Part shown: positions 7,144 to 40,638 of the stretch, piece after piece
How the letters are laid out: each line of letters starts with the position of its first letter
How positions within the stretch are numbered: the stretch's first letter is position 1
Source: Actinomycetota bacterium
GTDB lineage: Bacteria > Actinomycetota > UBA4738 > HRBIN12
Length of the DNA stretch: 64,000 nt
Direction: 5' to 3'
Assembly (NCBI GenBank): GCA_046716145.1
Contig: JBKJXU010000097.1
Coordinates: 9,676-73,675 of the forward strand
Notes under the pieces: generated by a model
Told to the model about the DNA's origin: nothing
Database searches by the model: none
Seen by the model: the letters and a program-made list of their open reading frames with translations, nothing else
Position numbers and translations under genes: made by a program

Positions 7144-7161
7144 GCGCCCACCGTAACAGCC

Positions 7162-9695: not shown

Positions 9696-9704
9696 CGGTC
9701 GAGC

Positions 9705-11159: not shown

Positions 11160-11186
11160 GACCAGCAGCGTAGTCGGTCGCGACGG

Positions 11187-18764: not shown

Positions 18765-18897
18765 GGCTTGAGGTCGGCGTCGGCCGCTACTTGAGAGTGC
18801 CTGAGGGCGCGCGGGAACGTCAATGGGACGAAGGTCTCGCCACCGGGGGAGCCGAAGGGCCGCCACGGCGATGGTGTCCCGTTGTTAGTTTGCCCGC

Positions 18898-21071: not shown

Positions 21072-22696
21072 CCCAGACCTCGCAACGACTCTTCGATCTG
21101 CCGCTCGTCCTCTTCGGTGAAGGGGTAGACCGCGGGGTCGTCGCCCCCGTCGCCGCGCGCTTCGGCACCCGGCGCGACGTTCCGTTCGGCGCCCGTGGCC
21201 GCACGCGACACGATCTCTTCGGCCACGCGGCCGTCGAGCCCGTCGGGGACGCCGAGCCCCGCAACGCGGAACGCCGTCGGCAGGACGTCCACCACCCGCA
21301 GCGATCGCGGGATCGGCCCCGGCACGAAGGACGGACCGGCGCCGATGAACACCCCGTCCTGATGGTGATAACCCCACGGCCGATCGCGATGGTCGGTGAG
21401 CGGGGACGTCGCGGCGAGCGTGTCGGACAGTTCGTATCGCTGATCACGACAGATCGGGAACAGGTGCGGAGCCCGGGACGCGAACGGTCCGACGGCCGCT
21501 TTGTGGCGTGGGATCACGCGATCGACCACGGGGTCGCCGTCGGCCGGGTCGACGAGACCGAGGAGCCGTTCGGTGATCTCCGCGGTGACCTCCTCGGTGC
21601 GCCCGGCGTCGAGCACCCCGTGCGGCAACGCAGGACCGCGCTCGTTCACATGGATCCCCTGTTCGGCCACCTGCGATGCGAACGCCTCGGTGCTGTCCCA
21701 GTCCAGTCCTCGGTTGATGCGGTTCTTCGCCTTCAGCAACAGACCCCGAGGCAACAGGCGGCGTGCCGCCGCTTGGATCGGGCCGGCGACCACCCCGGCG
21801 CGCGTGATCCTGCTCACGGCCGGGAGCCGCAGGTACCCCCACTCGTGCAGCAAGAGGTTGACATTGAGCGTCTTCTCCCACGGCCCCGCCCCGTGATCGG
21901 AGACGATGAGGACATCGCCTTCGGGACCGGCCCACGCGACGAGATCCGCGATCGCGAGGTCGAGCTCGGCGAAGTATGCCCACGCGCGCTCGCGCATCCG
22001 CGGCGCCTCCGGCCGTGCGTACCAGTCCGAGCACTCCACCAGGTACTGGTAGTGCAGGTGCTGCAGGCGGTCGGTCCCTTCGAACACCGCGAAGACCATG
22101 TCGACGTCACGCCGTTCGAGCAGCGCCCCCAGAACCGCCCTGCGCTTGATCTGGATCGCGGTGACCTCGTCGATCGCGGAGGGACGCGTCCAGTCGTTCT
22201 CATACGACACGACCGTGTCGATCGGGTAGGACCCGCCGGTCACCTCGCGGATCACGTCGGCCACCTCCGGGTCGGAGGCGAACCCATCGACATCCGGAGA
22301 GGTCCAACCGGCCGCCAGGCCGCCGGACACGAGGAACCCCCGCACACCGGGAGCGGGTGGGTAGGTCATCGGCACGTTGTAGACGCCGATCGAGACGTCG
22401 CGTGCTTCGGTGAACCGCCAGATCGGGGTCGACGCGATCGTCCCCGCATGCGCGATCTTCGCCGGCTCCTGCGGAGTGGTGGCGAGGAAGCCGTAGACGT
22501 TGTGCCGGCCGGGGTTGACCCCGGTGATCATCGAGACCCAGGCGGGCGGCGTGTACGCAGGGGTCGTCGAGGTCAGCGTGCCGTGTGCGCCGCGGTCTCG
22601 GAGCGCGGCCAGGGCCGGCATCACGCCCGCAGCGAACAACGGGTCGAGCAGCCGGGAAGTCGCGCCGTCGAGCCCGATGATCGCCGTTTTGCCCAC
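21059..22696 (-). CDS. AlkP-superfamily type I phosphodiesterase/nucleotide pyrophosphatase family protein (paralog 2)
   Basis: GTG start at 22696 preceded by GGGAGG SD; VGKTAIIGLDGATS...TPPAWVSMITGVNPGRHNVYGF, SDHG; acidic C-terminal tail ...EEDERQIEESLRGLGYLE. Confidence 0.75.
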   Translation of the reverse strand: MGKTAIIGLDGATSRLLDPLFAAGVMPALAALRDRGAHGTLTSTTPAYTPPAWVSMITGVNPGRHNVYGFLATTPQEPAKIAHAGTIASTPIWRFTEARDVSIGVYNVPMTYPPAPGVRGFLVSGGLAAGWTSPDVDGFASDPEVADVIREVTGGSYPIDTVVSYENDWTRPSAIDEVTAIQIKRRAVLGALLERRDVDMVFAVFEGTDRLQHLHYQYLVECSDWYARPEAPRMRERAWAYFAELDLAIADLVAWAGPEGDVLIVSDHGAGPWEKTLNVNLLLHEWGYLRLPAVSRITRAGVVAGPIQAAARRLLPRGLLLKAKNRINRGLDWDSTEAFASQVAEQGIHVNERGPALPHGVLDAGRTEEVTAEITERLLGLVDPADGDPVVDRVIPRHKAAVGPFASRAPHLFPICRDQRYELSDTLAATSPLTDHRDRPWGYHHQDGVFIGAGPSFVPGPIPRSLRVVDVLPTAFRVAGLGVPDGLDGRVAEEIVSRAATGAERNVAPGAEARGDGGDDPAVYPFTEEDERQIEESLRGLGYLE

Positions 22697-23884: not shown

Positions 23885-23888
23885 AGCC

Positions 23889-24785: not shown

Positions 24786-24938
24786 GCGGCACGCCCCTTC
24801 ACCGGCCTGGTCACCGCGGACCAGATCCTGGCAGGATGCGCGGGATCCCCCCTCACGTTTCGCCCCTTCCCCGCCGATGTTCTTCCATGAGTGGGGACCG
24901 TTCCTGGCCACGCTCAGCCGGAGGGACGGAAGGGGTTC

Positions 24939-25916
24939 GTGCGTGTGATCGAGGCTCGCCGATCGAGGCGATGGATGGGACTGGGAGTGAGCGCCGCGGT
25001 GCTCGCGGTCTCGATGGCGCCCGCTGCGCACGCGGTCTACAGACCGTTCGTGGATCGGAGCTACTGGAACCGATCGCTGCCGAACGACGCCCCACGCCAC
25101 CCCGACTCCGCACGAATCATCGACTTCCTGCGAGTCGACAACGACACGAACTACATCCGGCTGGCGGGAGCGACGCCGACGGGCGAGTGGGGCATGCCGA
25201 TCTACTGGCCCAGGCGCGAAGCACCCGTGTACGACGTCGGCCGCAACTGCAGCGTCGAGCAACCGCGCGAGTTCAACAACGTCCGCATCCCTCGGGGAGC
25301 GCGCCCAGATCCGACGAACGACGCCGCCATGACGATCATCGACAGGAACCGCGGGGTGGCCTACGGCCTCCATCACGCCCGCTACGACCGGAAGAACGAC
25401 CGCTGGACATCCTGCGGCGGGACCGTCTACTACCTCGCATCGAACGGCTTGCACGGCGACCTTCGCGCATCGGACGAGAAGCGCAATCGCGGTCACCGGG
25501 GCGTCCCGCCGACCATCTCGGCCGTGCGCTTCGACGAGGTGCGCGCGGGCTCGATCGACCACATCCTCAAGATCGCGGTGAACAGGACCGCGTGCCGGCA
25601 CGTCTTCCCGATGATCGACAGCGAGTGCGGTACGACGAACCGCTACGCGCCGCCGGAGGGCATACGGATCAGGATCAGGCCGGGGGTCAACCTCGAGAGA
25701 CTGCATCTGTCGCCGGCCGCGCTCGTCATCGCCCGGGCCCTGAAGCGGTACGGCGCGATCATCGGGGATCAATCCGGGGGTCCGATCGTCCTCAAGCTGG
25801 AGAACACGGTCGCGGAGGGTCGCGGGTTCCTGTGGAAGGGCATCCTCACACCGACATCGCTGGAGCGGATCCCGCTCCGCTATCTCGAGGTCTTGGCGCC
25901 GGGCTACCGGCCGTAG
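24939..25916 (+). CDS. secreted hypothetical protein (unknown function, in glycan cluster)
   Basis: Signal peptide RRSRRWMGLGVSAAVLAVSMAPAAHA; no recognised motif; start (GTG 24939 or Met 24975) uncertain. Confidence 0.5.
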   Translation: MRVIEARRSRRWMGLGVSAAVLAVSMAPAAHAVYRPFVDRSYWNRSLPNDAPRHPDSARIIDFLRVDNDTNYIRLAGATPTGEWGMPIYWPRREAPVYDVGRNCSVEQPREFNNVRIPRGARPDPTNDAAMTIIDRNRGVAYGLHHARYDRKNDRWTSCGGTVYYLASNGLHGDLRASDEKRNRGHRGVPPTISAVRFDEVRAGSIDHILKIAVNRTACRHVFPMIDSECGTTNRYAPPEGIRIRIRPGVNLERLHLSPAALVIARALKRYGAIIGDQSGGPIVLKLENTVAEGRGFLWKGILTPTSLERIPLRYLEVLAPGYRP

Positions 25917-25938: not shown

Positions 25939-27300
25939 GTGGACCTCCTGACGCTGGCGATCGGCGGCCTCGCGGCGATCTGCGCGTGGCTCTGGGCGGT
26001 GCGCGACCCGATGCGGACGATCGTGCCGGCCTACGCCGCACTCATCCCCTTGGGTGGGGTGCTCGCGCTGCGGATCCCGCTGCCGGCGCCGTTCAACACA
26101 CTCTCCTCGGCCGCGGGTGCACTCGCGATCGTCGCGCTGGCCGTGCACCTCGTGCGTTCCGGGCGTGGCCGTGTGCCCTCCCTCCCTGTGGGTGGCTGGC
26201 TCCTGTTCGTGGCGTGGGGCGCCATGACGGTGCTGTGGTCCGTCGACCCGACGGACGTCGTTCGGGAGATGACCCTCGCCGTGCCGCTGCTGGCCATCGT
26301 GGTGCTCGTCGCGATGGAGCCGGCGGATGATGGCGACCTCCGACGGATCGCATGGGCCACGCTGGCGTCGGGCGCAGCGATCGGCGCGTACGGGATGGCG
26401 CTCATCGTGGTCGGCGGCTCGCTCCCGGAGCACGGGCTGTCGGCGCGGTTCTCGCTCAGCGCCGACACGAACCCGAACCAACTGGCAACCAGTCTGTTGT
26501 TGCCCTTCTTCCTGGGCTTGGGCCTGACCCTGGATCGTCGCGACCCCGGTGCGCAGCGTTGGCGGGCCTACGCGGCGCCGGGCGGCACCATCCTGACGGG
26601 TGCGGCCATCGCGCTGTCCGGCTCGCGTGGCGGCGCGCTCGCTACGGCATTGGGCTCCGCCGTGTTCGTGGCGCTCGCCTGGCGCTGGTCGCCGTGGCGG
26701 CGCGACGCGGTCCGCCGCCTCGTCGCGGCAGGCATGGCCGGTGCCGCCGCGCTCGTTCTCACGGGCGTGCTCGCTACTTCGCTAGCGCCCGACAGCCGCA
26801 TCGCCTCGCTCCTTGCTGGGGACGCGGTCGGCCGGCTGGGAGCTGTGGAGTCGTCTTCGGGCCGGGCAGAGATCTGGACGGCCGGGGCCTTGGCGTGCAC
26901 GGCATACTGCGGCGTCGGATCCGGTCTCGGCACGTTCCCCGACGTGTACAACGACGTGTTCGCGTTCTCCAACGTCACCCGCAACGTCGGTGCCAGCCGC
27001 CCCGGACACAACCTCTACCTGGAGATCGCGGTCGAGACCGGACTACTCGGCATCGTGCTGTTCTGGATGGCGATCGGGAGCGAGTTCCGCGCGATCGCCA
27101 GACGCCGTGCCTCATGGCTCGCCCCGGCGCTGGCCGCAGCCATCGTTGCGATCCTGGTGGCTGACATCTTCGAGGGATTCCTGTGGTTCAAGCATGCGTG
27201 GCTGCCCTTCACCGTGATCCGCGTCTTCGAGTCCGCGGCGGATCGGAGCGCATCGGCCGAGGCCCGCCGGGAAGCGGCGTTCCCGCGGGTCATCTCGTGA
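25939..27300 (+). CDS. O-antigen ligase/polymerase family membrane protein (Wzy/WaaL-like)
   Basis: 453 aa, about 10-12 TM helices, LSGSRGG motif in a periplasmic loop typical of the O-antigen ligase/Wzy_C family. Confidence 0.7.
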   Translation: MDLLTLAIGGLAAICAWLWAVRDPMRTIVPAYAALIPLGGVLALRIPLPAPFNTLSSAAGALAIVALAVHLVRSGRGRVPSLPVGGWLLFVAWGAMTVLWSVDPTDVVREMTLAVPLLAIVVLVAMEPADDGDLRRIAWATLASGAAIGAYGMALIVVGGSLPEHGLSARFSLSADTNPNQLATSLLLPFFLGLGLTLDRRDPGAQRWRAYAAPGGTILTGAAIALSGSRGGALATALGSAVFVALAWRWSPWRRDAVRRLVAAGMAGAAALVLTGVLATSLAPDSRIASLLAGDAVGRLGAVESSSGRAEIWTAGALACTAYCGVGSGLGTFPDVYNDVFAFSNVTRNVGASRPGHNLYLEIAVETGLLGIVLFWMAIGSEFRAIARRRASWLAPALAAAIVAILVADIFEGFLWFKHAWLPFTVIRVFESAADRSASAEARREAAFPRVIS

Positions 27301-28223
27301 ACCTGCCGAACCTCCTGATCGCCGGGGTCCCGAAGGCAGCGACCGGGTCGCTGTTCGCCTACCTGGGACAACACCCGGCCGTGTGTGCGTCGAGCCGCAA
27401 GGAGATCAAGTACTTCTCCCCCGACGCCGCTGATGGCCGGTCGCGTCCGCTCGAGTGGTACGAGCGCTTCTTCGCCCATCGCGCCGGTGAACCGTTCGCG
27501 CTCGAGGCGACGCCGTCCTACTGCTACATGGGACCACGTGTGATCGACGCCATCGGGTCGAGCCTGGAGCGTCCCCGGGTGATCTGGATCCTTCGTGATC
27601 CGGTGGATCGCCTCTGGTCGGCCTACACGTTCCAACGGAGCCTCGGGCACCTGCCCGCGGGTATCGACACGTTCGAGGTGTACATCGATGCATGCATCGC
27701 CGAACGGACGGCCCATCCCCGCGTGCTGGACCAAGGATCGTTCAAAGGACTGTCGATAGGGATGTACGGCGAGCACCTACCGGCCTGGGACGAGGCCTTC
27801 GGCGAGGATCTGCGCGTGCTCTTCTTCGATGATCTCGCGAGGGACCCCGTCGAGGTGGTTCGGGGCGTGTGTGGGTGGCTGGGCATCGACGGCTCCGTGG
27901 TCGACGGGTTCGTGTGGGAAGCACACAACCCGACGGTGCACCCCCGCAGCGTGACACTCGCGCGAGGTGCAGCGACCGCCCGCGGTTGGAGCAAGCGCGT
28001 GCTTCGGCGGGCGCCGGGCCTGCGCAAACGGCTTCGCGATACCTACGTCCGGGCGAACGCGGGCATCCTGCGGGAAAGGCCGCGACCCGAGACGACCGAG
28101 CGGCTCCGGACGCTGTACGCCGGGTCCAACGCTGTCGTGATGAACGTGGCGCGGCGGCGCGGCATGACGCCGCTCCCGGACTGGCTCGAGCCCCCTCAGC
28201 CCTCCGGCACGAACCCCGCCTGA
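27297..28223 (+). CDS. PAPS-dependent sulfotransferase (Stf0-like, paralog 1)
   Basis: GTG overlapping previous stop (GTGA); 5'-PSB LIAGVPKAATGSL and 3'-PB ILRDPVDRLWSAY motifs. Confidence 0.75.
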   Translation: MNLPNLLIAGVPKAATGSLFAYLGQHPAVCASSRKEIKYFSPDAADGRSRPLEWYERFFAHRAGEPFALEATPSYCYMGPRVIDAIGSSLERPRVIWILRDPVDRLWSAYTFQRSLGHLPAGIDTFEVYIDACIAERTAHPRVLDQGSFKGLSIGMYGEHLPAWDEAFGEDLRVLFFDDLARDPVEVVRGVCGWLGIDGSVVDGFVWEAHNPTVHPRSVTLARGAATARGWSKRVLRRAPGLRKRLRDTYVRANAGILRERPRPETTERLRTLYAGSNAVVMNVARRRGMTPLPDWLEPPQPSGTNPA

Positions 28224-29740
28224 TCGGGGTCCCGGCCGCTCGCGGAGTCCTCACCACGCACGCGCAGCGCCCGCAGCGCCGATCTGTCCTCCTCGGACAG
28301 ACCCAGTCCCCAGAGGGCGACGACGTACGCCACAGCGACGACCGCCGCCGCGACGATGGCAGCGCTCGCGCCGTCGACCGGGACGATCGCCACGACGAGC
28401 AGCGAGCCAGCCGCGGCGACGCTCGCGGCGAGTGCAGGTTTCCAGACGTCGCGCGAGAACGGGAGTATCCGCTCGCGTGCCCAGATCTGCAGCAGGGGGA
28501 CCACGTTGTTCGAGGCGGTTCCCGCCGCCTTCGCGATGGCAGCGCCCGCGACGCCGTGCCGTGGGATGAGGACGAACGCGAGCCCGATCTCGAGCGCGAT
28601 CACGACGAGGTAATCGGCGAGCGCCGTCGCCGAGCGCCCCATCATGATCAGCGTGACGGTCACCGGGCCCGTCCCGAAGTTGAACAGCATCCCGAGGGCG
28701 AGGATCCGAAGCGCCGTCGTCCCTTCGGTGAACCCCGGCCCGAATACGGACAACAGCTCATGCGGGAAGGCGAGCATCAGGACCAGCAGGGGAGCACCGA
28801 GGGTGAACGTCCACCTGGTCGCGCTGCGATAGAGCGCGGCGAACTCCGTGCGCTTGCCCTGCAGGAAAAGGTCGGAGCCGATCGATGTGTAGACCTGGTT
28901 CAGCGAGTTCACGACCGATGTGAGGGCCCCGGCGATGCGGTTCGCGGCGGCGTACACGGCGGTCGCGATGACCGCCGCGATGGAACCCAAGAGCACCGGC
29001 ATGATCTGGCCTCGGCTCTGGCCGGCCAAGCGGGAGCCCCAGGCGGGCAATGCGAACCGTATGAGCGACCACGGTTCGACCGGTGCCACATCGCCCGTGA
29101 GCGGGACGCGACGCCACAAGACCGCGAGGGACACGGCGAGCAGAACGCACTCCGCCAGCAGGAGTCCGGCGTAGGCGGCCACCAACGACGCCGAGGCCAT
29201 CGCAAGCGCGCCGACCACGAGGAGCCGCACGGTCGGCTGCAGGACGTTGCGGATCAACGCCGCGTCGCGCATCTCCTTGAACGCCTGGGTGGCATACACG
29301 AGCACTTGACGCATACCGACGACCGGCGCCATCACGGCGGTCAGGCGCAACAGGGGCTCCAGATCCGCGTCGTGGAACACGGAGCGCGCGACGGGCCCCG
29401 CTGCCAGGAACAAGCCGGCACCGAGCAACGCGAGTCCGACCCCGGCGAGCGCCAGCGCCACGTGGATCGTTGCCCGTAGACGTGGGATATCGCCGATGCC
29501 GTGCTGGTAGGAGCCCTGACGCATCACGATCCAGTCGGCGCCGAGTTGCCCCACGATCGACAGGAGTTGCCCCAAGGAGAAGGCGATCGCCCACAGGCCG
29601 AAGGCGAGCTTGCCGTAGGTGCGCGCGATCACCACGGCCAGGACGAACGACCCGGCGAAGCTCACGACACCGCTGGACACGAGCAACGCCGAACCGCGCG
29701 CCATGCGGCCCGTGTGCGCGTGCACGACGGGGTCGTTCAT
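28196..29740 (-). CDS. wzx: Wzx-type polysaccharide flippase (MOP/PST family)
   Basis: 514 aa, 12-14 TM helices, polysaccharide biosynthesis protein family pattern; ATGA overlap with upstream sulfotransferase. Confidence 0.8.
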   Translation of the reverse strand: MNDPVVHAHTGRMARGSALLVSSGVVSFAGSFVLAVVIARTYGKLAFGLWAIAFSLGQLLSIVGQLGADWIVMRQGSYQHGIGDIPRLRATIHVALALAGVGLALLGAGLFLAAGPVARSVFHDADLEPLLRLTAVMAPVVGMRQVLVYATQAFKEMRDAALIRNVLQPTVRLLVVGALAMASASLVAAYAGLLLAECVLLAVSLAVLWRRVPLTGDVAPVEPWSLIRFALPAWGSRLAGQSRGQIMPVLLGSIAAVIATAVYAAANRIAGALTSVVNSLNQVYTSIGSDLFLQGKRTEFAALYRSATRWTFTLGAPLLVLMLAFPHELLSVFGPGFTEGTTALRILALGMLFNFGTGPVTVTLIMMGRSATALADYLVVIALEIGLAFVLIPRHGVAGAAIAKAAGTASNNVVPLLQIWARERILPFSRDVWKPALAASVAAAGSLLVVAIVPVDGASAAIVAAAVVAVAYVVALWGLGLSEEDRSALRALRVRGEDSASGRDPDQAGFVPEG

Positions 29741-30660
29741 GCGTACCCGAGCCGCGCCAACAGCGGCGCGCAGACCTCACCGACGGCACCCTGCACGTCC
29801 CCGGCCCAGGCGCGGTGCCGGCCGGTGTTCGGCTCGATCGAGGACCGCCGGGCGACACCGGGGTCTTCGAGGCCGGCGTGGTGAGGCGCGTCCGCGTACG
29901 CCATCACCGACGGATCCCACGCCTCGCCCAGGAACACGAAGAGGGGCGCGAGCGTGGCCGCCGGATCGGCCGTGAGGTCCTCGTAGCGGATCCGATAGCA
30001 CGCCTCGGGATGAGCGGCCTCGAAAGCCAGGATCTTCTCGGTCTGGGCGACCCAGAACCGTGCAGCACCGAGGGGCACGTCACCACCCGCCTCCCGCACC
30101 GACGCTCGTATGGCGGGGTAGAACCGCTCCGAGAGCGAATACGCGACATCGCGACCGTCGCGGACGATCGTTACGAAGCGTGCGCCGGGCCCGAACAGCG
30201 TCCAGAGGTCCTCGAGGAGGTCGACGTGATGCGGTGTCTTATCCGCCCACCGCGGCTTCCCCTGCGCGTCGGCGTAGGACTCGTAGAAGGACGCGATGAA
30301 CCGTGCGAGGGCCTGCGTGACGGCTTCGGCGCCGTACCCCATCCCGTCGAACCCCTTCCGCGCGCGAGGGTCGTGCAGCAGGTGCACGAGAGGACCGACG
30401 AACGCCGTCTCGGGGGGGCACGCGATCTTCGGATGCGAGTCGACGATACGGCGGAGCAGCGACGTGCCGCTCCTTTGGCAGCCAACCAGGAAGATGGCGT
30501 CCGCTCGGTCGGCATCACCGACCGAAGGCGCAGCCAGGGCTGGCGCACGGGGGTCGCGGGGCGCGGTGAGGCGGCCGACGGATCGACGCAGGCGACGTCG
30601 AAGGGTCACGGGCGGCTCACTCGATGTACCCGAGGCCGCGCAGGTGCTGCGCGATCTCAT
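29737..30660 (-). CDS. PAPS-dependent sulfotransferase (Stf0-like, paralog 2)
   Basis: 5'-PSB IFLVGCQRSGTSLL, 3'-PB IVRDGRDVAYS; start is either ATG 30660 or GTG 30609 (8 nt after the upstream AlkP stop). Confidence 0.75.
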   Translation of the reverse strand: MRSRSTCAASGTSSEPPVTLRRRLRRSVGRLTAPRDPRAPALAAPSVGDADRADAIFLVGCQRSGTSLLRRIVDSHPKIACPPETAFVGPLVHLLHDPRARKGFDGMGYGAEAVTQALARFIASFYESYADAQGKPRWADKTPHHVDLLEDLWTLFGPGARFVTIVRDGRDVAYSLSERFYPAIRASVREAGGDVPLGAARFWVAQTEKILAFEAAHPEACYRIRYEDLTADPAATLAPLFVFLGEAWDPSVMAYADAPHHAGLEDPGVARRSSIEPNTGRHRAWAGDVQGAVGEVCAPLLARLGYA

Positions 30661-32161
30661 CCTCTTCGGAGCGACCGAGGCCATCCCCCGGCATGGGCGC
30701 AGCGGCATCGGCCAGGTCTCCCCCGGTCCCTGCGATCGCCGGGATGGGCCGCCCGTCGATGTCGTCGGCGCGGAGCCCCTGGAGGCTGAGCAGCGTGGGC
30801 GCCAGATCCACGATCGACGGGGTGCCGAGATCCGCGGCGGCGGCCTCCGAACACACGATGATCCCCTCGCGACGATGGTCGCCCGACGGCCAGGTCGACG
30901 GCTGGGTGACGTGGTCGATGTTCCCCAGCCCCCAGCCGGGAGCCGGGCGAGCGAGGAGGTCGGGGGCGAGGTCGAGGTGGGGACCCGCCGGGAGCTCCTC
31001 GCGGAAGGTCACCTGGGCGACCGGTGCCTCACCGCTCTGCGGATCGCGGAACGCCAGCAGCGCTCCCGCCACCTCCCGCCGCACCCGGTCGTAGTCACCC
31101 GGGGCGACCGTTCCGTGGATCTCGCGCCCCTTGAGGTTGATCGCGATCGCCCCTCCGGACCCCGCCGAGTACGCAGCCGTGCGGCCCCAGTCGAGCGCAG
31201 CGGGAGCGCGGACCCGCTGCTTCAGCCGGTAGCCGGCTCGCGTCTTGCCGAGGGCGCGTGTGGGCGCCCATCGCCTCAGGGACCGCCCGAGCCGCGCGCG
31301 CGAGTCCGACGAGGCGAGCCCGAGCGCCTCCAACAACTTGCCGGTGCCGGCCAGGTGCGCGATGGGCCGGAAGCCGTGATCGGACATCACGATGGTGAGA
31401 GCGTCGGGCCCCGCCGCACGGCGCAGACGCGCGAGCGACTCATCGAGCAGTGCATACATCGACCGGAGCGACTCCCCCACCTGCGTCTGTCGAAGTCCCG
31501 CGTGCGCAGGGTGCGTCGGTAGGAGATAGGCGCCCATGGCGTGCTGCACACGATCGGGGGCCACGAACACGCAGACGGCGACATCCCATCGCCCCTCCAA
31601 CAAGATCTCGAAGGAGGCGCTTCGCTGCTCGACGAGGCGAAGGGCGTCACCGACCAAGCTCTCGGGCTCGTCGCGGTGGTGCATCCACTCGAGCCCGTTG
31701 ATCGGGAACGGGGCGCGCGCATCGAGTTCCTCGGCGAACGCCGAAGGGGTCACGAAGGGCGCACCCCGAGGGATCGCCACACCACCGATCATCCGTCCGT
31801 TGACCTCCCAAGGAGGGAACGTGACCGGGATGTTGGCGGCCCGCACCTCGAGGCCCGCCGCAGAGAGGCGATCGAGGAAGGTGGCTTTCCTGATGGACGT
31901 GGATGACACCGGGATACGCCGATCGGCGTCGGTCGGGTCGCGCTGCACGAAGTCCCACACACCGTGGCCGGCTGGGTGCGAACCGGTCAGGAACGATGAC
32001 CACGCGGCCCACGAGTGAGACGGAACGGTGGACAGCAGCGTCCCGCGGCCCCCTTCGCGGATGAGTGCTTCGAGGTTGGGCAGGAGACCGCGGGAAAGGA
32101 GATCGTCCACGATCTCCCAGTCGGCTCCATCCCACCCGACCACCAAGACCCGTCGTCTCAC
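30617..32161 (-). CDS. AlkP-superfamily type I phosphodiesterase/nucleotide pyrophosphatase family protein (paralog 3)
   Basis: GTG 32161 overlapping ATP-grasp stop (GTGA); VLVVGWDGADW...TVPSHSWAAWSSFLTGSHPAGHGVWDF, SDHG; C-terminal ...SEEDEIAQHLRGLGYIE as in paralog 2. Confidence 0.75.
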   Translation of the reverse strand: MRRRVLVVGWDGADWEIVDDLLSRGLLPNLEALIREGGRGTLLSTVPSHSWAAWSSFLTGSHPAGHGVWDFVQRDPTDADRRIPVSSTSIRKATFLDRLSAAGLEVRAANIPVTFPPWEVNGRMIGGVAIPRGAPFVTPSAFAEELDARAPFPINGLEWMHHRDEPESLVGDALRLVEQRSASFEILLEGRWDVAVCVFVAPDRVQHAMGAYLLPTHPAHAGLRQTQVGESLRSMYALLDESLARLRRAAGPDALTIVMSDHGFRPIAHLAGTGKLLEALGLASSDSRARLGRSLRRWAPTRALGKTRAGYRLKQRVRAPAALDWGRTAAYSAGSGGAIAINLKGREIHGTVAPGDYDRVRREVAGALLAFRDPQSGEAPVAQVTFREELPAGPHLDLAPDLLARPAPGWGLGNIDHVTQPSTWPSGDHRREGIIVCSEAAAADLGTPSIVDLAPTLLSLQGLRADDIDGRPIPAIAGTGGDLADAAAPMPGDGLGRSEEDEIAQHLRGLGYIE

Positions 32162-33348
32162 GTGACCCCCTCGGACCCTCGCCCGGTGCCCGAGCGTCCC
32201 CGGAGCGACGCCACGCCACGCGCGGCGACGTGGCCGGCCGCCCGCAACGCGGGCCGGAGATCGTCCATCGCCAACAGTGCACCTTCCTCGACGCCTCGGA
32301 ACGACGCGAGCCACGATCTGGCTGTCAGCCAGCCAGCCGTACGGTACGGCAGCATGCTGCTCGCAACATGGCTTTCCAGGATCCAGCCGCGTCCGTCCGG
32401 CACCACCTCATCCGGGATCGCGCCTCCGGTCAGATCCAGATACGCGCACCGCGCCACGTCGAGACCGCCAACGGCGACGAAGGCGCGGAACGTCCCACCG
32501 ATCCTCGGGTTCACGTCGAGCAGGACGTACCGGCCGGTCCGTTCGTCGAACCGGACGTCGACATCCACGGGCCCCACGTAGCCGAGGTCGCCGAGGAAAC
32601 CGGTGACGAGGCGCGCGATGTCGTCGTTGCGTTCGGTCACGGCGTGCGTCGCCGTCCCCGCATAGGCGGGATGCTGCGCGATCTTGCGTCCCGTCGCCCA
32701 GAACCGGCACGTGCTCGACGCATCGAAGTACGCATCGAAGATCCAGTTCACGCGCCGGGGTGATCCCGGCAGATGCTCCTGCAGGAGGACGCCGTCCTCA
32801 CCGAGCATCCGCACGGCTTCCTCACGTGTCGCCGCGATGACCACGCTCCGACGCCCACGAGCCCGCGGACCGGCAGGAGCCTTCACCACCAGCGGCAGCC
32901 CCACGAGATCGCAGAAGGCGTCGAGTTCTTCGGGCGTACGCACCCGACGGATCCGTAGGGTCGCGACGCCTGCGTCTTCCGCCATGGCAGCCAGGGTCTC
33001 CTTGTCTATCGATCGCTCGACAAGACCTACGGGCAACTCGGGGAAGACGAACCCTTCGCGGAGCGCATCGGCGTGGGTCTGGACGAACATCGCCGCCTCA
33101 TCATCGGTCGGCAGCAGCACCGAGCGGCCGTGGCGTGCCGCCAGGGCGGTGAGCGCCCCGACCCCGCCCGGCCCGGGGGTGAAACGCTCGAAGGCGTGGA
33201 CGTAACGAGAGCGCCCCGCGATCCCGCTGCGGGGATCGGGGCTGGCGAGGATGACCGGGACGCCCCAGCGCCCGAGGGAACGGATCGCACCGAGGACCCC
33301 GTGTTGTGGGAACGGTTCGCTCGCTGTGCGCAGGACCGTGACCGGCAT
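32158..33348 (-). CDS. ATP-grasp domain ligase (paralog 2)
   Basis: About 396 aa; ATP-grasp core (LVVKAPAG..., LLQEHLPG...), C-terminal extension. Confidence 0.7.
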   Translation of the reverse strand: MPVTVLRTASEPFPQHGVLGAIRSLGRWGVPVILASPDPRSGIAGRSRYVHAFERFTPGPGGVGALTALAARHGRSVLLPTDDEAAMFVQTHADALREGFVFPELPVGLVERSIDKETLAAMAEDAGVATLRIRRVRTPEELDAFCDLVGLPLVVKAPAGPRARGRRSVVIAATREEAVRMLGEDGVLLQEHLPGSPRRVNWIFDAYFDASSTCRFWATGRKIAQHPAYAGTATHAVTERNDDIARLVTGFLGDLGYVGPVDVDVRFDERTGRYVLLDVNPRIGGTFRAFVAVGGLDVARCAYLDLTGGAIPDEVVPDGRGWILESHVASSMLPYRTAGWLTARSWLASFRGVEEGALLAMDDLRPALRAAGHVAARGVASLRGRSGTGRGSEGVT

Positions 33349-33446
33349 GCCGGTGCGCGAACTCAGACGGGGTGCCATGGGGGTCGTATCATCGCAGCAC
33401 GCCGTTGCGCCACCGCCGGCACCCGTGAAAGGACCTGCGATCGACC

Positions 33447-34235
33447 ATGGCTGTGCTGACGTATCACGCCGTCGACCCGGAGTGGTCTGCGCCGTTGTCC
33501 GTTGGTCCGGATCAGTTCAGGAGACATCTCGATTGGATCGGCAACAACCGTCGTGTCGTTGCCCTGGAAGAGACCTTGGCCCGGAACGGCCATCTGGCAC
33601 ATGACGAGGTGGCGATCACGTTCGACGACGGCTTCACGTCCGTCGCCCAGCACGCACTCCCGGCGCTTCGCGACCGCGGGATGCGCGCCACGATCTTCCT
33701 CGTCGGCAAGATGCTCGACGGGAGCGGCGGAACCATCGACTGGGTTGACCGGCCGCCGGGGCACCCTCTCGCGGTGCTGGACCCCGCCCTGATCCGCGAG
33801 TTGCGCGATGAGGGCGTGGAGTTCGGGAGCCATTCCTACGCGCACCGCGATCTCACGACGCTCGGCTTCGCGGCGTGCGTCGAGGACCTTCACAGGGGCC
33901 GCGATGTCCTGCAGGACACCCTCGGGAAGGAGGTCACCACGCTCGCCTACCCCTTCGGGCGCCACGACGCCGACGTTCGACGGGCCGCCGCCGAGGCGGG
34001 ATTCACGTGGGCGTTCGCGATGGCCATGCCACCTCGTGCCCACGTCTCGATGGCCATACCGCGGGTGGGCATCTACGCGAACGACGACCTTGCGAGGCTC
34101 CGGATGAAGACCCACTCCTGGTACGGCCGGGTGCGGTCAAGCGCCATCTACCCGGCGTTGCATCGCATCAGGGCGCGCATCCGCGGTGATGCCGCCGTGG
34201 ATGGACACGATGGGACGTCCGGGAGTCCACCCTAA
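33447..34235 (+). CDS. polysaccharide deacetylase (CE4/NodB homology domain)
   Basis: ITFDDGF (TFDDG motif), HSYAH; 262 aa. Confidence 0.8.
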   Translation: MAVLTYHAVDPEWSAPLSVGPDQFRRHLDWIGNNRRVVALEETLARNGHLAHDEVAITFDDGFTSVAQHALPALRDRGMRATIFLVGKMLDGSGGTIDWVDRPPGHPLAVLDPALIRELRDEGVEFGSHSYAHRDLTTLGFAACVEDLHRGRDVLQDTLGKEVTTLAYPFGRHDADVRRAAAEAGFTWAFAMAMPPRAHVSMAIPRVGIYANDDLARLRMKTHSWYGRVRSSAIYPALHRIRARIRGDAAVDGHDGTSGSPP

Positions 34236-34304
34236 GCCGAAAGGCGGGGTTTTCAGTCGACGGGGGTCAATGTATGCTCCCTACGCACACGAGGAGCAGC
34301 CCCT

Positions 34305-35690
34305 TTGGCCTACGTACAGCCCCCCGAACGCATCACCCGGACAGTGGGCACCCGGGTCGGTACCACACCCACCGAGGTCCGCGACCGTCGCGCCGAGCGG
34401 GTCTCCACGCGCAGACTCGTCCTCGCGCTCGATATCGTCGTGCTCGGGGTCTTCGTTGCGTCGTTGCCAGGTGCGGCCGTCGCGCTCTATGCGGCACTCG
34501 CACTCCTGGGATTGAAGAGCGTCGGCGTCTACGGGGCCAGGCTGATGCCACGCGTCGGCGATGACGTCCCGCGATTGCTCGCCGCGGTCGCCGTCCCCGC
34601 CGTCGTGCTGCCGTGGGTCGCTGCGCCGGAACTGGCCGTGCAGCTCACGACACGGATCCCCGCGCTGCTCCTGGCGCTCGTCGCCGGGCGCTCGGTCACC
34701 TATTGGATCCTGCACCGCGCTCGCGCGACGGGGCGGCGACACGAACGGGTCCTGATCGTCGGAGCCGGCGATCGCGGGCGCGACCTCGCCCGCATCCTCG
34801 TCGAGCGCCCGCGGTTCGGCCTCGAGCCGGTCGGCTTCGTGGACGAGGCCGCGATCGCACCCCTCCCCCATCCGTTGCTCGGGGGCGTCGACGACCTCCC
34901 CAAACTCGTTGCCGTGCACGGGATCGACCGCGTGATCGTCGCGGAATGGGAGGGCGAAGACGAGGATCTGATGCACGTGCTGCGGGCCTGCACCGAACAC
35001 CGGGTCCACGTGCACGTCGCGCCACGCTTGTTCCAACTCGGGACCGCCCCATCGGGGCCGTCCACGGACTGGTTGTGGACGACGCCCTTGGTGCGACTGT
35101 CCGAAACCCCGCAACGAACGCGCGCCTGGCGAGCCAAGCGCCTGATGGACATCTCGGTCGCGGCGATCCTCCTGGTGGTCTCGGCACCGCTCTGGCTCGC
35201 CGCCGCCGTCGCGATCAAGTTTTCGGGGCCGGGCCCGGTCCTGTTCCGCCAGGTCCGCTTGACGGAGGGCGGACGCCTCTTCGAAGTCCTCAAGCTCCGG
35301 ACGATGCCTGTGAACGACACATCGGATACTCGATGGGGCGATGCCGGGCAACAGCCGACGCGGGTGGGTCTCCTCCTTCGGCGATCGGGCTTGGACGAGC
35401 TCCCGCAGTTGCTCAACATCATCAAGGGCGAGATGTCGCTCGTGGGACCGCGCCCCGAACGGCCGTACTTCGTCGAGCGCTTCTCCACATCGATCGAGGG
35501 CTACCGCGACCGCCTGCGCGTCCCGGCGGGGCTCACGGGGTGGGCCCAGGTCCACGGCCTGCGCGGGGAAACCTCGATCGAGGAACGGGTGATGTTCGAC
35601 AACGAGTACATCGAGTACTGGTCGTTGTGGCGCGACATCGTGATCCTCGTCCGCACGATCAAGGCCTTCGTCGTGGGCGAGGGCTCGTAG
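34305..35690 (+). CDS. undecaprenyl-phosphate glycosyl-1-phosphate transferase (WbaP/EPS priming sugar transferase family)
   Basis: 461 aa; N-terminal TM block, C-terminal bacterial sugar transferase domain (KRLMDISVAAILL...PGPVLFRQVRLTEGGRLFEVLKLRTM...DELPQLLNIIKGEMSLVGPRPE). Confidence 0.85.
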   Translation: MAYVQPPERITRTVGTRVGTTPTEVRDRRAERVSTRRLVLALDIVVLGVFVASLPGAAVALYAALALLGLKSVGVYGARLMPRVGDDVPRLLAAVAVPAVVLPWVAAPELAVQLTTRIPALLLALVAGRSVTYWILHRARATGRRHERVLIVGAGDRGRDLARILVERPRFGLEPVGFVDEAAIAPLPHPLLGGVDDLPKLVAVHGIDRVIVAEWEGEDEDLMHVLRACTEHRVHVHVAPRLFQLGTAPSGPSTDWLWTTPLVRLSETPQRTRAWRAKRLMDISVAAILLVVSAPLWLAAAVAIKFSGPGPVLFRQVRLTEGGRLFEVLKLRTMPVNDTSDTRWGDAGQQPTRVGLLLRRSGLDELPQLLNIIKGEMSLVGPRPERPYFVERFSTSIEGYRDRLRVPAGLTGWAQVHGLRGETSIEERVMFDNEYIEYWSLWRDIVILVRTIKAFVVGEGS

Positions 35691-35709
35691 CCGGCGCCCC
35701 CTCCCCCCC

Positions 35710-36723
35710 GTGGACACGACGGTCATCATCCCCGCCCGGAACGAGGAAGCCTCCATCGAGCGCTGCCTCACCTCGGTCTTGGCGCAGGACGCGCCCGACC
35801 TGGAGGTCATCGTCATCGACGGTGCGTCGACGGATGGCACCCTCGCCGTCATCGAGGCGATCGCCGGGTCCGACCACCGCGTCCGCATCCTGCACAACCC
35901 CGACGGCGCCATCCCTGTGTCCCTGAACATGGGGCTGATGGCGGCGCACGGACGGTGGCTCGTCCGCGTCGACGCGCATTCGACGGTGCCGCCGGGATAC
36001 GTTCGCACGCTCACCGGACACCTGGCAACGGGTCGCTGGGGCGGCGTCGGAGGCCGCAAGGACGCGGATGCAAGCACACCCATGGGCGAGGCGATCGCGC
36101 TCGCTCTGGGATCCCCGGCCGGCGTGGGTGATTCCGCCTACCACTGGGCGCAGGAACCACGCCGCACGGATCACGTTCCGTTCGGCGCCTACCCGGTCGC
36201 GCTCCTGCGCACGCTGGGGGGCTGGGACGAGCGCCTGGACGCGAACGAGGACTACGAGATGGACCTGCGTATCCGCCAGGCCGGGCACGACCTCCTGCTC
36301 GACCCCGCCGTACGTATCCGCTGGCGATCCAAGGATTCGCTCGGTGCGCTGTGGCGCCAGTACCTGCGCTACGGACGCGGCAAGGCTGACGTCGCGCGAC
36401 TGCACCCGGGGACCCTCGCCCCCCGCCACCTGGCCGCCCCCGCGATGGTGGCAGGCGTCTCGATGGCAGTGCTCATCGCCCCGCTCGCACCCGCGGCCGC
36501 GGCACTGCTCGCCGCCCCGTACCCGATGTTCGTGCTCGGCGCTGGCGTGTGGATCGCAGTACGAGCCGGCCGCGCATCATCGGCGCCGAGGATCGCCGCG
36601 GCCCTCGCCACGATGCACGTGGCCTGGGGGCTCGGGTATTGGCAGGGACGCGTGCGTCCTCGGATCCGATCGCGCGCCGGGGGCGTCGCGGCGGTTCAGT
36701 CGCCCGCGGGCCCCGTCCGGTAG
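35710..36723 (+). CDS. glycosyltransferase family 2
   Basis: VIIPARNEE...VIVIDGASTDGT GT2 N-terminal signature, DxD region (DANEDYE), C-terminal TM segments. Confidence 0.8.
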   Translation: MDTTVIIPARNEEASIERCLTSVLAQDAPDLEVIVIDGASTDGTLAVIEAIAGSDHRVRILHNPDGAIPVSLNMGLMAAHGRWLVRVDAHSTVPPGYVRTLTGHLATGRWGGVGGRKDADASTPMGEAIALALGSPAGVGDSAYHWAQEPRRTDHVPFGAYPVALLRTLGGWDERLDANEDYEMDLRIRQAGHDLLLDPAVRIRWRSKDSLGALWRQYLRYGRGKADVARLHPGTLAPRHLAAPAMVAGVSMAVLIAPLAPAAAALLAAPYPMFVLGAGVWIAVRAGRASSAPRIAAALATMHVAWGLGYWQGRVRPRIRSRAGGVAAVQSPAGPVR

Positions 36724-37682
36724 CCACGCGCCTCCAGGTGCCCGCCGATCGCTTCCTCGAGCTGCTCCACCTGGCGAACCGTGAGATCGCCCCGGAACGC
36801 CTCGCGCCGCCCGGTGGCCACGGGGTAGGCCTCGAACGCGGCCTCGAACCGCTCATCCCATGCAAGCCCCGCGGTCTCCAGGATGGCCGGCCAGTGCGTT
36901 CGGGGCTCAGCGACCAGATCCTCGTAGCGCAGCTCGAGCCACCGATCATCGCCGACCTCCTCGCGCGCGGCGTCGAAGGCGTCCATCAGGATCCGCCACT
37001 CGAGGCCCGCCAGCGTGATGAGAGACCGGTCGTGCTTCGCCCAGATCTCCGCGAGCTCCGGTGAGAGATCGCCGAAGCCCCAGCCGGGTACACCCAGGCG
37101 TCCCTTCCACCATGGCCGCTGTACGATCGACGATGCCACGGCCCGGCCGTCACGGACCACGTGGAGGAACCGCGCTTCCGGCATGACCGCGTGGATGAAC
37201 CGAGCACGAGGCCACCCCGTGAACTTGTGCATGAAGACCGGCGTGCCCTGCGCCTGCGCACGCTCGGTGAAGAACGTGCGGAAACGCGCGGCGAGCCAGG
37301 GCGTGACATCGTCCGCGTTCAGATCGCGGAACGGCTCCGACACGATCGGCGACAGGTGCCTGTCGATCAGCCGGTAGGCCTCCGACGGACCGAAGTGAAC
37401 GTGCTCGGCGAGCGTGTACCGGCGGTGCTTGAGGTAGGCGCTGTCGCGACGCGCGAGCGACCCGGACACGACGCGAGCCAACGCTCGGTTCGCCCTCCCC
37501 TTCGGGTTGAACGCCGAGAGCGCCATGTCGACGTTCGAGATGTACCCGACGTCCGGATGGTGGGCGATGAGTTCCTGCACGAGCGTCGAACCGCACCGGC
37601 CGGTCACGATGATGAACAGGAAGCGTGGATCGCTCACGACCCCCCCTCCCCCGAACGGCTCGCTGCCCGGGACTTCAACCAT
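36696..37682 (-). CDS. PAPS-dependent sulfotransferase (Stf0-like, paralog 3)
   Basis: 5'-PSB FIIVTGRCGSTLV, 3'-PB VVRDGRAVASS; 328 aa. Confidence 0.75.
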   Translation of the reverse strand: MVEVPGSEPFGGGGVVSDPRFLFIIVTGRCGSTLVQELIAHHPDVGYISNVDMALSAFNPKGRANRALARVVSGSLARRDSAYLKHRRYTLAEHVHFGPSEAYRLIDRHLSPIVSEPFRDLNADDVTPWLAARFRTFFTERAQAQGTPVFMHKFTGWPRARFIHAVMPEARFLHVVRDGRAVASSIVQRPWWKGRLGVPGWGFGDLSPELAEIWAKHDRSLITLAGLEWRILMDAFDAAREEVGDDRWLELRYEDLVAEPRTHWPAILETAGLAWDERFEAAFEAYPVATGRREAFRGDLTVRQVEQLEEAIGGHLEARGYRTGPAGD

Positions 37683-38782
37683 GCCTTCGCGGAGGCCGGA
37701 ACCCTGTTCCGCACGCCATCAGCCACGAACGAGGGGGCGACACCGACCCACGTCCGAGGTGAAGCCGCAGCGCGCGAAGGCACCAGGCGGACCCAATCGA
37801 GGTCCTCCGCGTGGTCGGTGAACCGGGCCTTGTACCCCTGCCGGCCCGCTCCGAGGCCCACGGACGTGTCACCGGACGCCCACGCATGCTCGATCGCGGC
37901 CAGGAGCGTCACCATCGCCGGAGAGTACCGCGCGAACCGATCGTCGAAGCCACCGAGCCAGTAGCCCGCCCGGCCGCCGGCGCAGATGAACAGATGCGAG
38001 GAGATCGTCTCGCCGCCGAGGTCCACGGACCACAGGCGGAAGCGCCCGGACGGCAGGAGTTCCTCGGCCAGGTCCGCCAGGAAGGCGCCCGTCGCGGGCC
38101 TGAGCCGGCCGGAGCCGCCCCTCCACTCCCAGCGGCTCTCGTGCAGCCGCTCGAACGCAGCCAGATCCGCGTGAGCCTGCCCCACGCTCGCCGACAGACG
38201 CACCACGGCACCCTCGGCCTCCAGTTGACGGCGACGGCGCCGGAGCGTCTGCCGGAAGTTCGTGCTCTTGGCCGCCATCCAGTCGTCGAAGGACGTGCCC
38301 GCCATCACGATCGTCGGCAGGGGCCGGCGCGCCTCGCGCTGCAGGACCGCCCCGCCCGGCCACCCACGACGCAGCGCCTGCGGCCAGGGCGAGCTCGCGG
38401 GCACGCCGTCGAGGTGGACCGCGTGCAGACGCGGCCGGGCCTCCGCGAGCCCCCCCGCGATCGCAGCGGCGACCTCGCGCTCACGCCCAGCCGCGGCGAG
38501 CGGGCCGAGAGGGGTTCCCCCGTAGCGGGCTGCCAGGAGCCGGCCATGCCAGGTACCGGCCGTCTCGCGAACGAGGTGGAACGCCCCGAGCCCGACCAGT
38601 TCATCGCCATCGCGGACCGCGAACACCCGCAGATGGGCGCCGGGTGGGGCGAGATGACGCCACCACGCGAGCATCCACGCCGGTCCCGCGTAGGGCAGAC
38701 CGAGGCCCACGGCGAGTCCGTCCCACTCGTGGAGGAGCCCCGGAAGGTCTTCCTCGCGCTCGAACGTCGTCGTGTGCAGCAC
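37634..38782 (-). CDS. GNAT-fold acyltransferase (Acetyltransf_6 / CelD-BioF2-like)
   Basis: 382 aa; architecture and motifs of the FemAB-like GNAT family common in polysaccharide loci. Confidence 0.6.
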   Translation of the reverse strand: MLHTTTFEREEDLPGLLHEWDGLAVGLGLPYAGPAWMLAWWRHLAPPGAHLRVFAVRDGDELVGLGAFHLVRETAGTWHGRLLAARYGGTPLGPLAAAGREREVAAAIAGGLAEARPRLHAVHLDGVPASSPWPQALRRGWPGGAVLQREARRPLPTIVMAGTSFDDWMAAKSTNFRQTLRRRRRQLEAEGAVVRLSASVGQAHADLAAFERLHESRWEWRGGSGRLRPATGAFLADLAEELLPSGRFRLWSVDLGGETISSHLFICAGGRAGYWLGGFDDRFARYSPAMVTLLAAIEHAWASGDTSVGLGAGRQGYKARFTDHAEDLDWVRLVPSRAAASPRTWVGVAPSFVADGVRNRVPASAKAWLKSRAASRSGEGGS

Positions 38783-40264: not shown

Positions 40265-40638
40265 CCGCTCACGTCCGCCAGGGTGATCTGATAGACCTTG
40301 CGGAGCGTTTCGTGCACCGTCCAGCGGGTCCGCGCCCCGCGCGCGAGCACCGCCATGTCGCCCGGTTCGACCTCCAAGGTCTCCCCGCCCTCGACCTCGA
40401 TGGTCGCCCTCCCGTGGACGACGATGAAGACCTCGTCTTGCTCCACGTCGATCACGGTGCCTTCCGTGATCTCCCACACGCCTCGGAGCACGCGGCCGTC
40501 GGCGGAGGACCAGAGCAGCGCTTCGGTCACCCTGGGCGAGCCTTCCAGCACGGTGGCGGGATCGAGGACGCCCTCATCCAGGACGAGGTCGGCGACGTGG
40601 ATCGCGAACGTGCTTCCGGGTCCGGCGGGCTCAGGCAC
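40261..40638 (-). CDS. cupin domain protein
   Basis: 125 aa; two-motif cupin pattern (DEVFIVVHGRATIEVEG...PGDMAVLARG). Confidence 0.65.
   Translation of the reverse strand: MPEPAGPGSTFAIHVADLVLDEGVLDPATVLEGSPRVTEALLWSSADGRVLRGVWEITEGTVIDVEQDEVFIVVHGRATIEVEGGETLEVEPGDMAVLARGARTRWTVHETLRKVYQITLADVSG

Follow-up and report, generated by a model that had tools for sequence, protein, structure and literature searches.

Gene clusters that join Wzx/Wzy-dependent polysaccharide assembly to sulfotransferases are already on record for cyanobacteria and, as a prediction, for one actinomycete, and the locus considered here—three sulfotransferase genes (ST1, ST2, and ST3) in a 64,000-nt stretch of DNA, hereafter the window, from an Actinomycetota bacterium (UBA4738; HRBIN12; assembly GCA_046716145.1, contig JBKJXU010000097.1, positions 9,676–73,675 of the forward strand)—is not a new kind of system. 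Among characterized systems, the synechan (xss) cluster of Synechocystis sp. PCC 6803 comes closest to it: the number of sulfotransferases, two, equals that of the sulfates in each repeat unit, and modification is modeled at the cytoplasmic face; deletion of xssE, one of the two sulfotransferase genes, had little phenotype (PMC8205485). The closest taxonomic analogue is wps-1 of Actinoplanes missouriensis, an actinobacterial Wzx/Wzy/Wzz cluster with sulfotransferases of different families and a predicted, chemically unverified sulfation (PMC13390465, 2026). The polysaccharide region of Vibrio sp. KMM 8419, which makes a chemically verified sulfated capsule, contains three sulfotransferase genes plus cysNDC, and the combination of sulfotransferase genes with genes for the synthesis of 3′-phosphoadenosine 5′-phosphosulfate (PAPS) has been proposed as a hallmark of sulfated-polysaccharide clusters (PMC11641403). 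Genes of the Pfam family PF13469 were already reported by metagenomic surveys in metagenome-assembled genomes (MAGs) of several phyla (PMC9723792). A 2026 paper nevertheless continued to describe cyanobacteria as the sole bacterial producers of sulfated polysaccharides (PMC13390465), and our own literature search for sulfated exopolysaccharide (EPS) in Actinomycetota found nothing.

For the window locus, we consider it likely that ST1–3 use PAPS to sulfate, in the cytoplasm, the lipid-linked repeat unit of a Wzx/Wzy heteropolysaccharide before this unit is flipped across the membrane, and the organism probably makes a multiply sulfated sugar polymer.

Three distinct sulfotransferases under purifying selection

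An initial annotation of the window had pointed to three open reading frames (ORFs) with sulfotransferase motifs. Because the window has a GC content of ~70%—with the polysaccharide locus matching its flanks—we chose ORFs by third-position GC, which gave the following genes:

27297..28223, plus strand: ST1, soluble sulfotransferase of 308 aa, resembling heparan-sulfate 3-OST/NST
29737..30609, minus strand: ST2, soluble sulfotransferase of 290 aa, TPST-like
36696..37637, minus strand: ST3, soluble sulfotransferase of 313 aa with a TPST/Stf1/Stf9/CurM-ST-type fold

Strands and ORFs agreed with the initial annotation and the motifs it had quoted were present in the translations (PKAATGSL and RDPVDRLWS in ST1; CQRSGTSL and RDGRDVAYS in ST2; GRCGSTL and RDGRAVASS in ST3), while all three proteins scored above the Pfam gathering cutoffs: ST1 with Sulfotransfer_1 (PF00685; 4e-13, 49.8 bits against a cutoff of 22), ST2 and ST3 with Sulfotransfer_3 (PF13469; 2e-32 and 113.9 bits, and 3e-22 and 80.2 bits, respectively, against a cutoff of 27). 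The start positions previously given for ST2 (30660) and ST3 (37682) are probably too far upstream. The most likely start of ST2 is the GTG at 30609, 7 nt past the upstream stop, which yields the 290 aa of the NCBI-annotated ortholog P0001; that of ST3 is the GTG at 37637, which overlaps the upstream stop in a GTGA and yields the 313 aa of the homolog P0241.

In family alignments of 28 sequences each (A1 for ST2, A2 for ST1, and A3 for ST3), the motif residues proved invariant or nearly so. K13, E36, R100, and S108 of ST1 were invariant, the loops conserved across its homologs comprising K13, T16, and S18 for the 5′-phosphosulfate and R100 and S108 for the 3′-phosphate. The ST2 family kept R45, S46, T48, E66, K123, R149, and S157 without exception, and the ST3 family E86, K138, R162, and S170, with R14, S17, and T18 conserved to at least 90%; the invariant E86 is a candidate catalytic base of ST3. 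The 5′-phosphosulfate loop comprises R45, S46, and T48 in ST2 and R14, S17, and T18 in ST3, and the 3′-phosphate is assigned to R149 and S157 in ST2 and to R162 and S170 in ST3. Comparison with the related locus L001 (MAG contig 'Actinomycetota bacterium isolate LejiaA_69_12', 94.7% identical; other related loci are likewise given L numbers below) showed that all three genes are under purifying selection, with dN/dS values of 0.20 for ST1, 0.15 for ST2, and 0.08 for ST3. None of the three proteins has a transmembrane (TM) segment or signal peptide.

As for structurally characterized relatives, ST1 matched the sequences of a bacterial sulfotransferase (3rnl, 5e-17), heparan sulfate (HS) 3-OST-3/-1 (1e-10), and the NST domain of NDST (4e-10) in the PDB. 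With the HS enzymes it shares the lysine of the 5′-phosphosulfate-binding (PSB) motif, aligned with that of HS 3-OST, the catalytic glutamate (E36 aligns to that of the 3-OST EPHFF motif), and the arginine and serine of the 3′-phosphate-binding (PB) motif; however, the sequences are less than 30% identical, and ST1, a bacterial protein, is predicted to be cytoplasmic whereas the HS enzymes are Golgi-lumenal. ST1 may carry out either O- or N-sulfation. ST2 aligned over its full length to TPST1/2 (1e-16), and its family shows no variation at the positions equivalent to TPST R78, E99, K158, R183, and S191, E66 taking the position of E99. It is also 30% identical (1e-13) to WP_011153583.1, the second sulfotransferase of the synechan cluster on Synechocystis pSYSM, which we presume from the xss gene order to be XssE. 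Fold was tested for ST3 only, by searching an AlphaFold2 (AF2) model (pLDDT 88) against the PDB with Foldseek: 39 PDB sulfotransferase chains matched at E ≤ 1e-3, with TPST1/2 among the best (TPST2, 1e-8) and with Mycobacterium avium Stf9 (2z6v), the OLS and CurM sulfotransferase domains, and M. tuberculosis Stf1 (2zq5) also represented. The similarity of ST3 to TPST is only partial.

The three genes had been described as paralogs, which does not apply in a recent sense: BLAST detects no similarity of ST1 to either of the others, and only 30% identity over 174 aa connects ST2 with ST3. Each has its own ortholog in related loci (58–70% identity), so that their mutual divergence must be older than the split of these lineages.

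The resemblance to TPST suggests an alternative, namely that ST2, and perhaps ST3, is a RaxST/TPST-type tyrosine sulfotransferase for a secreted or envelope protein and that only ST1 acts on sugar. The full-length alignment of ST2 with its invariant catalytic residues, the fold matches of ST3, and the label 'protein-tyrosine sulfotransferase' given by JGI to many homologs would all fit this explanation. Yet ST2 is homologous to a sulfotransferase from a cluster for a sulfated EPS, the fold group of ST3 includes Stf1, Stf9, and the CurM domain, which do not act on proteins, and no RaxX-like peptide, other peptide substrate, or dedicated exporter gene was seen. Moreover, we disfavor tyrosine sulfation because every context examined for the ST2 family was a glycan locus, with Wzy, Bac_transf, glycosyltransferases, Polysacc_synt, or NeuB-type sugar genes, and the context of ST3 is likewise glycan assembly in all cases examined. 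We thus judge it quite unlikely and retain sulfation of a glycan repeat unit as our reading for all three enzymes.

A compact Wzx/Wzy locus and its probable PAPS supply

ST1–3 lie in a compact Wzx/Wzy locus of ~24 kb (about 17.5–41.6 kb of the window) between tsaD and groES, and the Pfam families of the neighboring genes bear out the initial annotation in placing the three sulfotransferases inside one polysaccharide locus. Apart from ST1–3, the genes of the locus, and two genes on the far side of groESL, are:

17541-18884: secreted or anchored protein, function unknown, no Pfam match
18889..19956, plus strand: ATP-grasp ligase 1 (ATPgrasp_Ter, 1e-5, below gathering score; orthologs in L004 and L007)
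19953..21071, plus strand: family 4 glycosyltransferase, GT4 (Glyco_trans_1_4, 1.7e-26)
21059..22696, minus strand: PD1, alkaline-phosphatase superfamily, predicted cytoplasmic (Phosphodiest PF01663, 5.6e-29)
22904-23884 and about 23802-24785, plus strand: two tandem proteins with two TM segments each, probably Wzz-type co-polymerases, from topology
24891..25916, plus strand: conserved protein, function unknown, with an N-terminal signal/anchor segment; no Pfam or NCBIfam match
25939..27300, plus strand: Wzy-type polymerase, Wzy_C/O-antigen-ligase-like (Wzy_C, 1.3e-15; at least 9 TM-like segments)
28196..29740, minus strand: Wzx flippase of the MOP family (Polysacc_synt, 4e-18, plus MatE; at least 10 TM-like segments)
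30617..32161, minus strand: PD2, Phosphodiest paralog (PF01663, 3.9e-37), directly upstream of ST2
32158..33378, minus strand: ATP-grasp ligase 2 (ATP-grasp_3, 4e-7)
33447..34235, plus strand: polysaccharide N-deacetylase of carbohydrate esterase family 4, CE4 (Polysacc_deac_1, 2.3e-28; no signal peptide or TM segment)
34305..35690, plus strand: priming polyprenyl-phosphate glycosylphosphotransferase (Bac_transf, 1e-56)
35710..36723, plus strand: family 2 glycosyltransferase, GT2 (Glycos_transf_2, 1.4e-27)
37634..38782, minus strand: FemAB-like GNAT (Acetyltransf_6 PF13480, 4.8e-29), translationally coupled to ST3
38855-40264, minus strand: FAD amine-oxidase-like DAO (Pfam, NCBIfam)
40261-40638, minus strand: cupin (Pfam)
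40696-41640, minus strand: NAD epimerase/dehydratase (Pfam), end of the right arm
11187..11819, minus strand: adenosine 5′-phosphosulfate (APS) kinase, CysC type (PF01583, 1.4e-56), stand-alone, far side of groESL
11819..13228, minus strand: PD3, Phosphodiest paralog (PF01663, 3.5e-39), directly upstream of the APS kinase

The assignment of the priming transferase is backed by NCBIfam TIGR03025 (EPS_sugtrans; 346.7 bits, above the cutoff of 295.6), and the Polysacc_synt match of Wzx and the Wzy_C match of Wzy both exceed their gathering scores. The two tandem proteins are 29% identical over 141 aa and each has a loop of ~130 aa between its two TM segments, the start of the second being uncertain; neither has a Pfam match, and profile support comes solely from a weak Wzz match of the L005 ortholog. 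The conserved protein at 24891..25916 is 60–64% identical in L004, L005, and L026.

PAPS for the locus would come from close by. Judging from its sequence, the APS kinase is the probable PAPS source, 15 kb away and outside the interval that the initial annotation had reported. It is translationally coupled to PD3, whose stop shares 1 nt with the GTG start of the kinase gene, and APS kinase genes adjoin ST2-like genes in L029, L037, L038, and L066. A GMC oxidoreductase gene (9705-11186) comes next after the APS kinase.

We propose the following route. A WbaP/WcaJ-type phosphotransferase would prime the polyprenyl-phosphate carrier, GT2 and GT4 would extend the repeat unit, and the deacetylase, the ATP-grasp ligases, and the FemAB-like enzyme would tailor it. 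ST1, ST2, and ST3 may then each place a sulfate from PAPS, made by way of the nearby APS kinase, on a position of its own in the lipid-linked unit while this faces the cytoplasm, before the sulfated unit is flipped by Wzx and polymerized by Wzy with the help of the two polysaccharide co-polymerase (PCP)-like proteins. The data show the enzyme families, the intact catalytic residues, the purifying selection, and the conserved locus; we infer that the acceptor is a glycan, that sulfation precedes flipping, and that each enzyme has one site. The multiply sulfated repeat unit put forward in the initial annotation is a reasonable prediction, given three PAPS-type sulfotransferases in a Wzx/Wzy locus together with an APS kinase.

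Several points weigh against this proposal. Neither an ATP sulfurylase nor CysQ was found within the window, and all support is genomic, from an uncultured organism whose nearest record is a MAG. For ST2 and ST3, the closest solved relatives act on tyrosine in proteins, not on sugars, so that only context speaks for a glycan as acceptor. The Wzy_C protein could be a ligase or an O-oligosaccharyltransferase and not a polymerase. Finally, the mild outcome of the xssE deletion in synechan implies that not every sulfotransferase need add stoichiometric sulfate.

The initial annotation had described ST1 and ST2 as translationally fused to the Wzy and Wzx genes, respectively, by GTGA and ATGA. Both overlaps are present—GTGA at 27297–27300 combines the Wzy stop with the GTG start of ST1, and ATGA at 29737–29740 the ST2 stop with the wzx start—but the start and stop codons merely share 4 nt and the frames differ, so the genes are not fused. 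The window has ten of these 4-nt overlaps, housekeeping pairs included (for example rimI/tsaD, alr/UDG, YjeF/alr, cupin/DAO, ATP-grasp/PD2, ATP-grasp/GT4, and FemAB-like/ST3), and they are ordinary operon compaction in a high-GC genome. ST1, ST2, and ST3 are each translationally coupled to, or overlap, other genes of the locus. The Wzy/ST1 overlap is kept in L004 and L005, which fits stable co-expression. The ST2/wzx junction, in contrast, is not conserved, because L004–L006 lack wzx at the position, between ST1 and ST2, that it occupies in the window, L001, and L009 (the corresponding stretches are 10894–10914 in L004 and 10843–10866 in L005); no flippase is visible in the 20-kb stretches of L004–L006. 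The junctions thus lend no support to the suggested co-translational coupling of sulfation with polymerization and export. The locus is unusually compact in other places too, with convergent 3′ overlaps of 28 nt for ST1/Wzx (28196–28223) and GT2/ST3 (36696–36723).

These observations also bear on the broader idea that the three proteins are Stf0/NodH-like glycolipid or lipo-oligosaccharide sulfotransferases, coupled physically and co-translationally to Wzy and Wzx by fusion. Real overlaps at both junctions, the persistence of one of them in L004 and L005, and the presence of mycobacterial Stf1 and Stf9 among the fold neighbors of ST3 are what one would expect from it. However, the term 'Stf0-like' did not withstand profile searches: PF09037 is absent at E ≤ 10 for all three proteins, and Stf0 appears neither in the PDB sequence matches of ST1–3 nor among the 50 fold matches listed for ST3. 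With the NoeE equivalog model NF052394, ST2 reached 30.9 bits and ST3 12.2 bits against a cutoff of 500, and ST1 had no match. Likeness to Stf0, NodH, and NoeE thus amounts to that of the general PAPS-sulfotransferase superfamily, while glycolipid or Nod-factor gene context is lacking at the ST1–3 locus; profile scans of the locus detected no lipid-assembly genes (PKS, acyltransferase, MmpL). Together with the out-of-frame overlaps and the absence of wzx from the junction in L004–L006, this makes the idea very improbable.

A further explanation keeps the glycan yet not the polymer: the sulfotransferases might act on nucleotide-sugar precursors or on a non-polymerized glycoconjugate such as a protein O-glycan or lipoglycan, the Wzy_C protein being a ligase. 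Indeed, Wzy_C (PF04932) also covers O-antigen ligases and O-oligosaccharyltransferases, the best NCBIfam match of the protein is a 'putative O-glycosylation ligase' model (below cutoff), and the flippase is dispensable at its position in L004–L006. Two PCP/Wzz-like proteins with two TM segments directly upstream of Wzy, as well as an EPS-type priming transferase and Wzx, argue the other way, and we assign this explanation a low probability. Sulfation of the lipid-linked unit of a Wzx/Wzy polymer remains our favored reading.

Other tailoring is suggested by the two ATP-grasp ligases, the FemAB-like GNAT, the amine-oxidase-like protein, and the cupin, which together point to amino-acid or amine modification besides sulfation. 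We considered a link to phosphonates, since DAO scored 234 bits with a 'putative aminophosphonate oxidoreductase' model, below its cutoff, and the Phosphodiest proteins weakly resemble phosphonoacetate hydrolase, and rejected it: scores are far below cutoffs and the locus has no phosphoenolpyruvate (PEP) mutase. Also rejected were the Pfam-less ORFs (17541–18884, 22904–23884, 23802–24785, and 24891–25916) as extra divergent sulfotransferases, as they showed no similarity to sulfotransferases by hidden Markov model (HMM) or BLAST. Elsewhere in the window there are two genes for PIN-domain toxin-like proteins (1572-2006 and 7162-7623, both on the minus strand), genes listed as a sortase and an M10-like metallopeptidase (888-1562, plus strand, and 4584-5471, minus strand, respectively), and a stretch of lower GC (0.63–0.65) at 2–6 kb. 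An Rfam scan of the window returned no RNA family.

Conservation and the accompanying Phosphodiest genes

The locus is followed on one side by tsaD, with rimI, tsaB, and alr beyond, and on the other by groES–groEL, the groES–tsaD span covering 17098–43076. In M. tuberculosis, tsaD and groES are immediate neighbors, and the locus thus sits within a conserved housekeeping neighborhood. Its right arm looks co-transcribed with tsaB–rimI–tsaD, since the GTG of the epimerase gene overlaps the tsaD stop. In L004, a contig of 501 kb, the locus likewise abuts groES.

All three sulfotransferases are kept in the L001, L004, L005, and L009 loci. Amino-acid identity between orthologs is 91–97% for L001 and 52–77%, for nearly every gene, for L004, L005/L006, and L009. 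The adjacency of the FemAB-like gene to ST3 recurs in L005, L009, and p74K4-F4, and more distant relatives (L007, L020, L089, and p74K4-F4) contain the same modules with one or two sulfotransferases. The locus is, in other words, vertically inherited in an uncultured Actinomycetota lineage, with the sulfotransferases as stable components. Each ST family further has hundreds of environmental homologs at 45–90% identity—mostly, where the source is named, from Actinomycetota MAGs—and none of those listed is characterized.

Nor is the number of sulfotransferases extraordinary. L003, from a class Actinomycetes MAG (CAVYUG010000004.1), contains three Pfam-confirmed sulfotransferase genes (1855–3045, 2829–3662, and 7901–8938) and, by tblastn, three further ST2-like regions (10001–12441), all within ~11 kb (1855–12861) and interspersed with genes for GT4, GT2, P450, an RTX-repeat protein, and a methyltransferase. 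L002 was grouped with L003 in the same sulfotransferase-rich observation. L003 and the related loci thus argue that three sulfotransferases per glycan locus are not extreme among uncultured actinobacteria.

A second family accompanies these genes. PD1, PD2, and PD3 are mutually 26–28% identical (PD3 26% to both PD1 and PD2) and have a complete bimetal site of the nucleotide pyrophosphatase/phosphodiesterase (NPP) type; having no TM segments, they are probably cytoplasmic. PD1 and PD2 share a C-terminus ending in LRGLGY[LI]E. No other protein of the locus is as conserved as PD1, with 73–77% identity in L004 and L005 and a dN/dS of 0.09. The GT4 and PD1 genes converge with a 3′ overlap of exactly 13 nt (21059–21071 in the window) that, by gene calls, is the same in L004 (18422–18434), L005 (18487–18499), L007 (20350–20362), L089 (14277–14289), and p74K4-F4, and that persists down to 58% protein identity. 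PD2 stays directly upstream of ST2 in L001, L004, L005, L009, and L026, and an unrelated locus, L066, has an APS kinase, an ST2-like, and a PD-like gene in tandem (9237–12117). Overall, PD-type genes recur beside sulfotransferase or APS kinase genes in the window, L004, L005, L007, L009, L026, L066, and L089. Queried as a single sequence, PD2 had no PDB sequence match, and a profile search gave distant PhnA and NPP matches only; a literature search on Phosphodiest/PF01663 returned nothing linking the family to sulfotransferases or polysaccharide clusters.

One speculative reading of this association is that PD1–3 may be dedicated, so far unrecognized partners of glycan sulfation, with 3′-phosphoadenosine 5′-phosphate (PAP), PAPS, or APS as possible substrates, or with the repeat unit as possible acceptor of a phosphoryl or sulfuryl group. 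Independently of this, heparan-like N-sulfation might result from the deacetylase together with the NST-like ST1, the N-deacetylase of the locus paralleling the deacetylate-then-sulfate logic of NDST. We hold this extension to be unlikely; if it is true, then in either case the locus encodes a new polyanionic polymer of the envelope, which would be a core trait passed on vertically within an uncultured Actinomycetota lineage. In any event, we flag the Phosphodiest paralogs as an unexplained family that accompanies sulfation genes.

Comparison with known sulfated-polysaccharide clusters

Whereas the initial annotation had likened the locus to sulfated mycobacterial glycolipids and to Nod-factor sulfation, it is best compared with two clusters for sulfated EPS, synechan xss and Actinoplanes wps-1. 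Its three families of candidate carbohydrate sulfotransferases, with their hundreds of environmental homologs each, could serve the enzymatic production of sulfated glycans.

The Vibrio sp. KMM 8419 region resembles the window in its three sulfotransferase genes, joined there by PAPS-synthesis genes, but is a 95-kb composite region for capsular polysaccharide (CPS) and O-antigen in a Gram-negative bacterium, dependent on an ABC transporter, with full cysNDC and without Wzy. In wps-1, by its published description, one sulfotransferase is HS-sulfotransferase-like, as is ST1; that cluster, however, has two sulfotransferases together with a methyltransferase, a kinase-like protein, and a protein of glycoside hydrolase family 26 (GH26), and its role is in the sporangium matrix. 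Synechan shares with our locus a Wzx/Wzy/PCP-dependent EPS cluster with several sulfotransferases of different subfamilies, an ST2 homolog being present in both. It differs in that it has two sulfotransferases instead of three and no counterpart of ST1, is cyanobacterial, plasmid-borne, and regulated by XssQRS, and has neither a linked APS kinase nor the Phosphodiest paralogs and ATP-grasp and FemAB-like genes of the window. Next to wps-1, the locus makes a stronger genomic case—three distinct, selectively maintained sulfotransferases, a nearby APS kinase, and an arrangement conserved at a fixed housekeeping position in several uncultured Actinomycetota lineages—and suggests that these bacteria of soils and saline lakes stably maintain sulfated polymers in their envelope or matrix.

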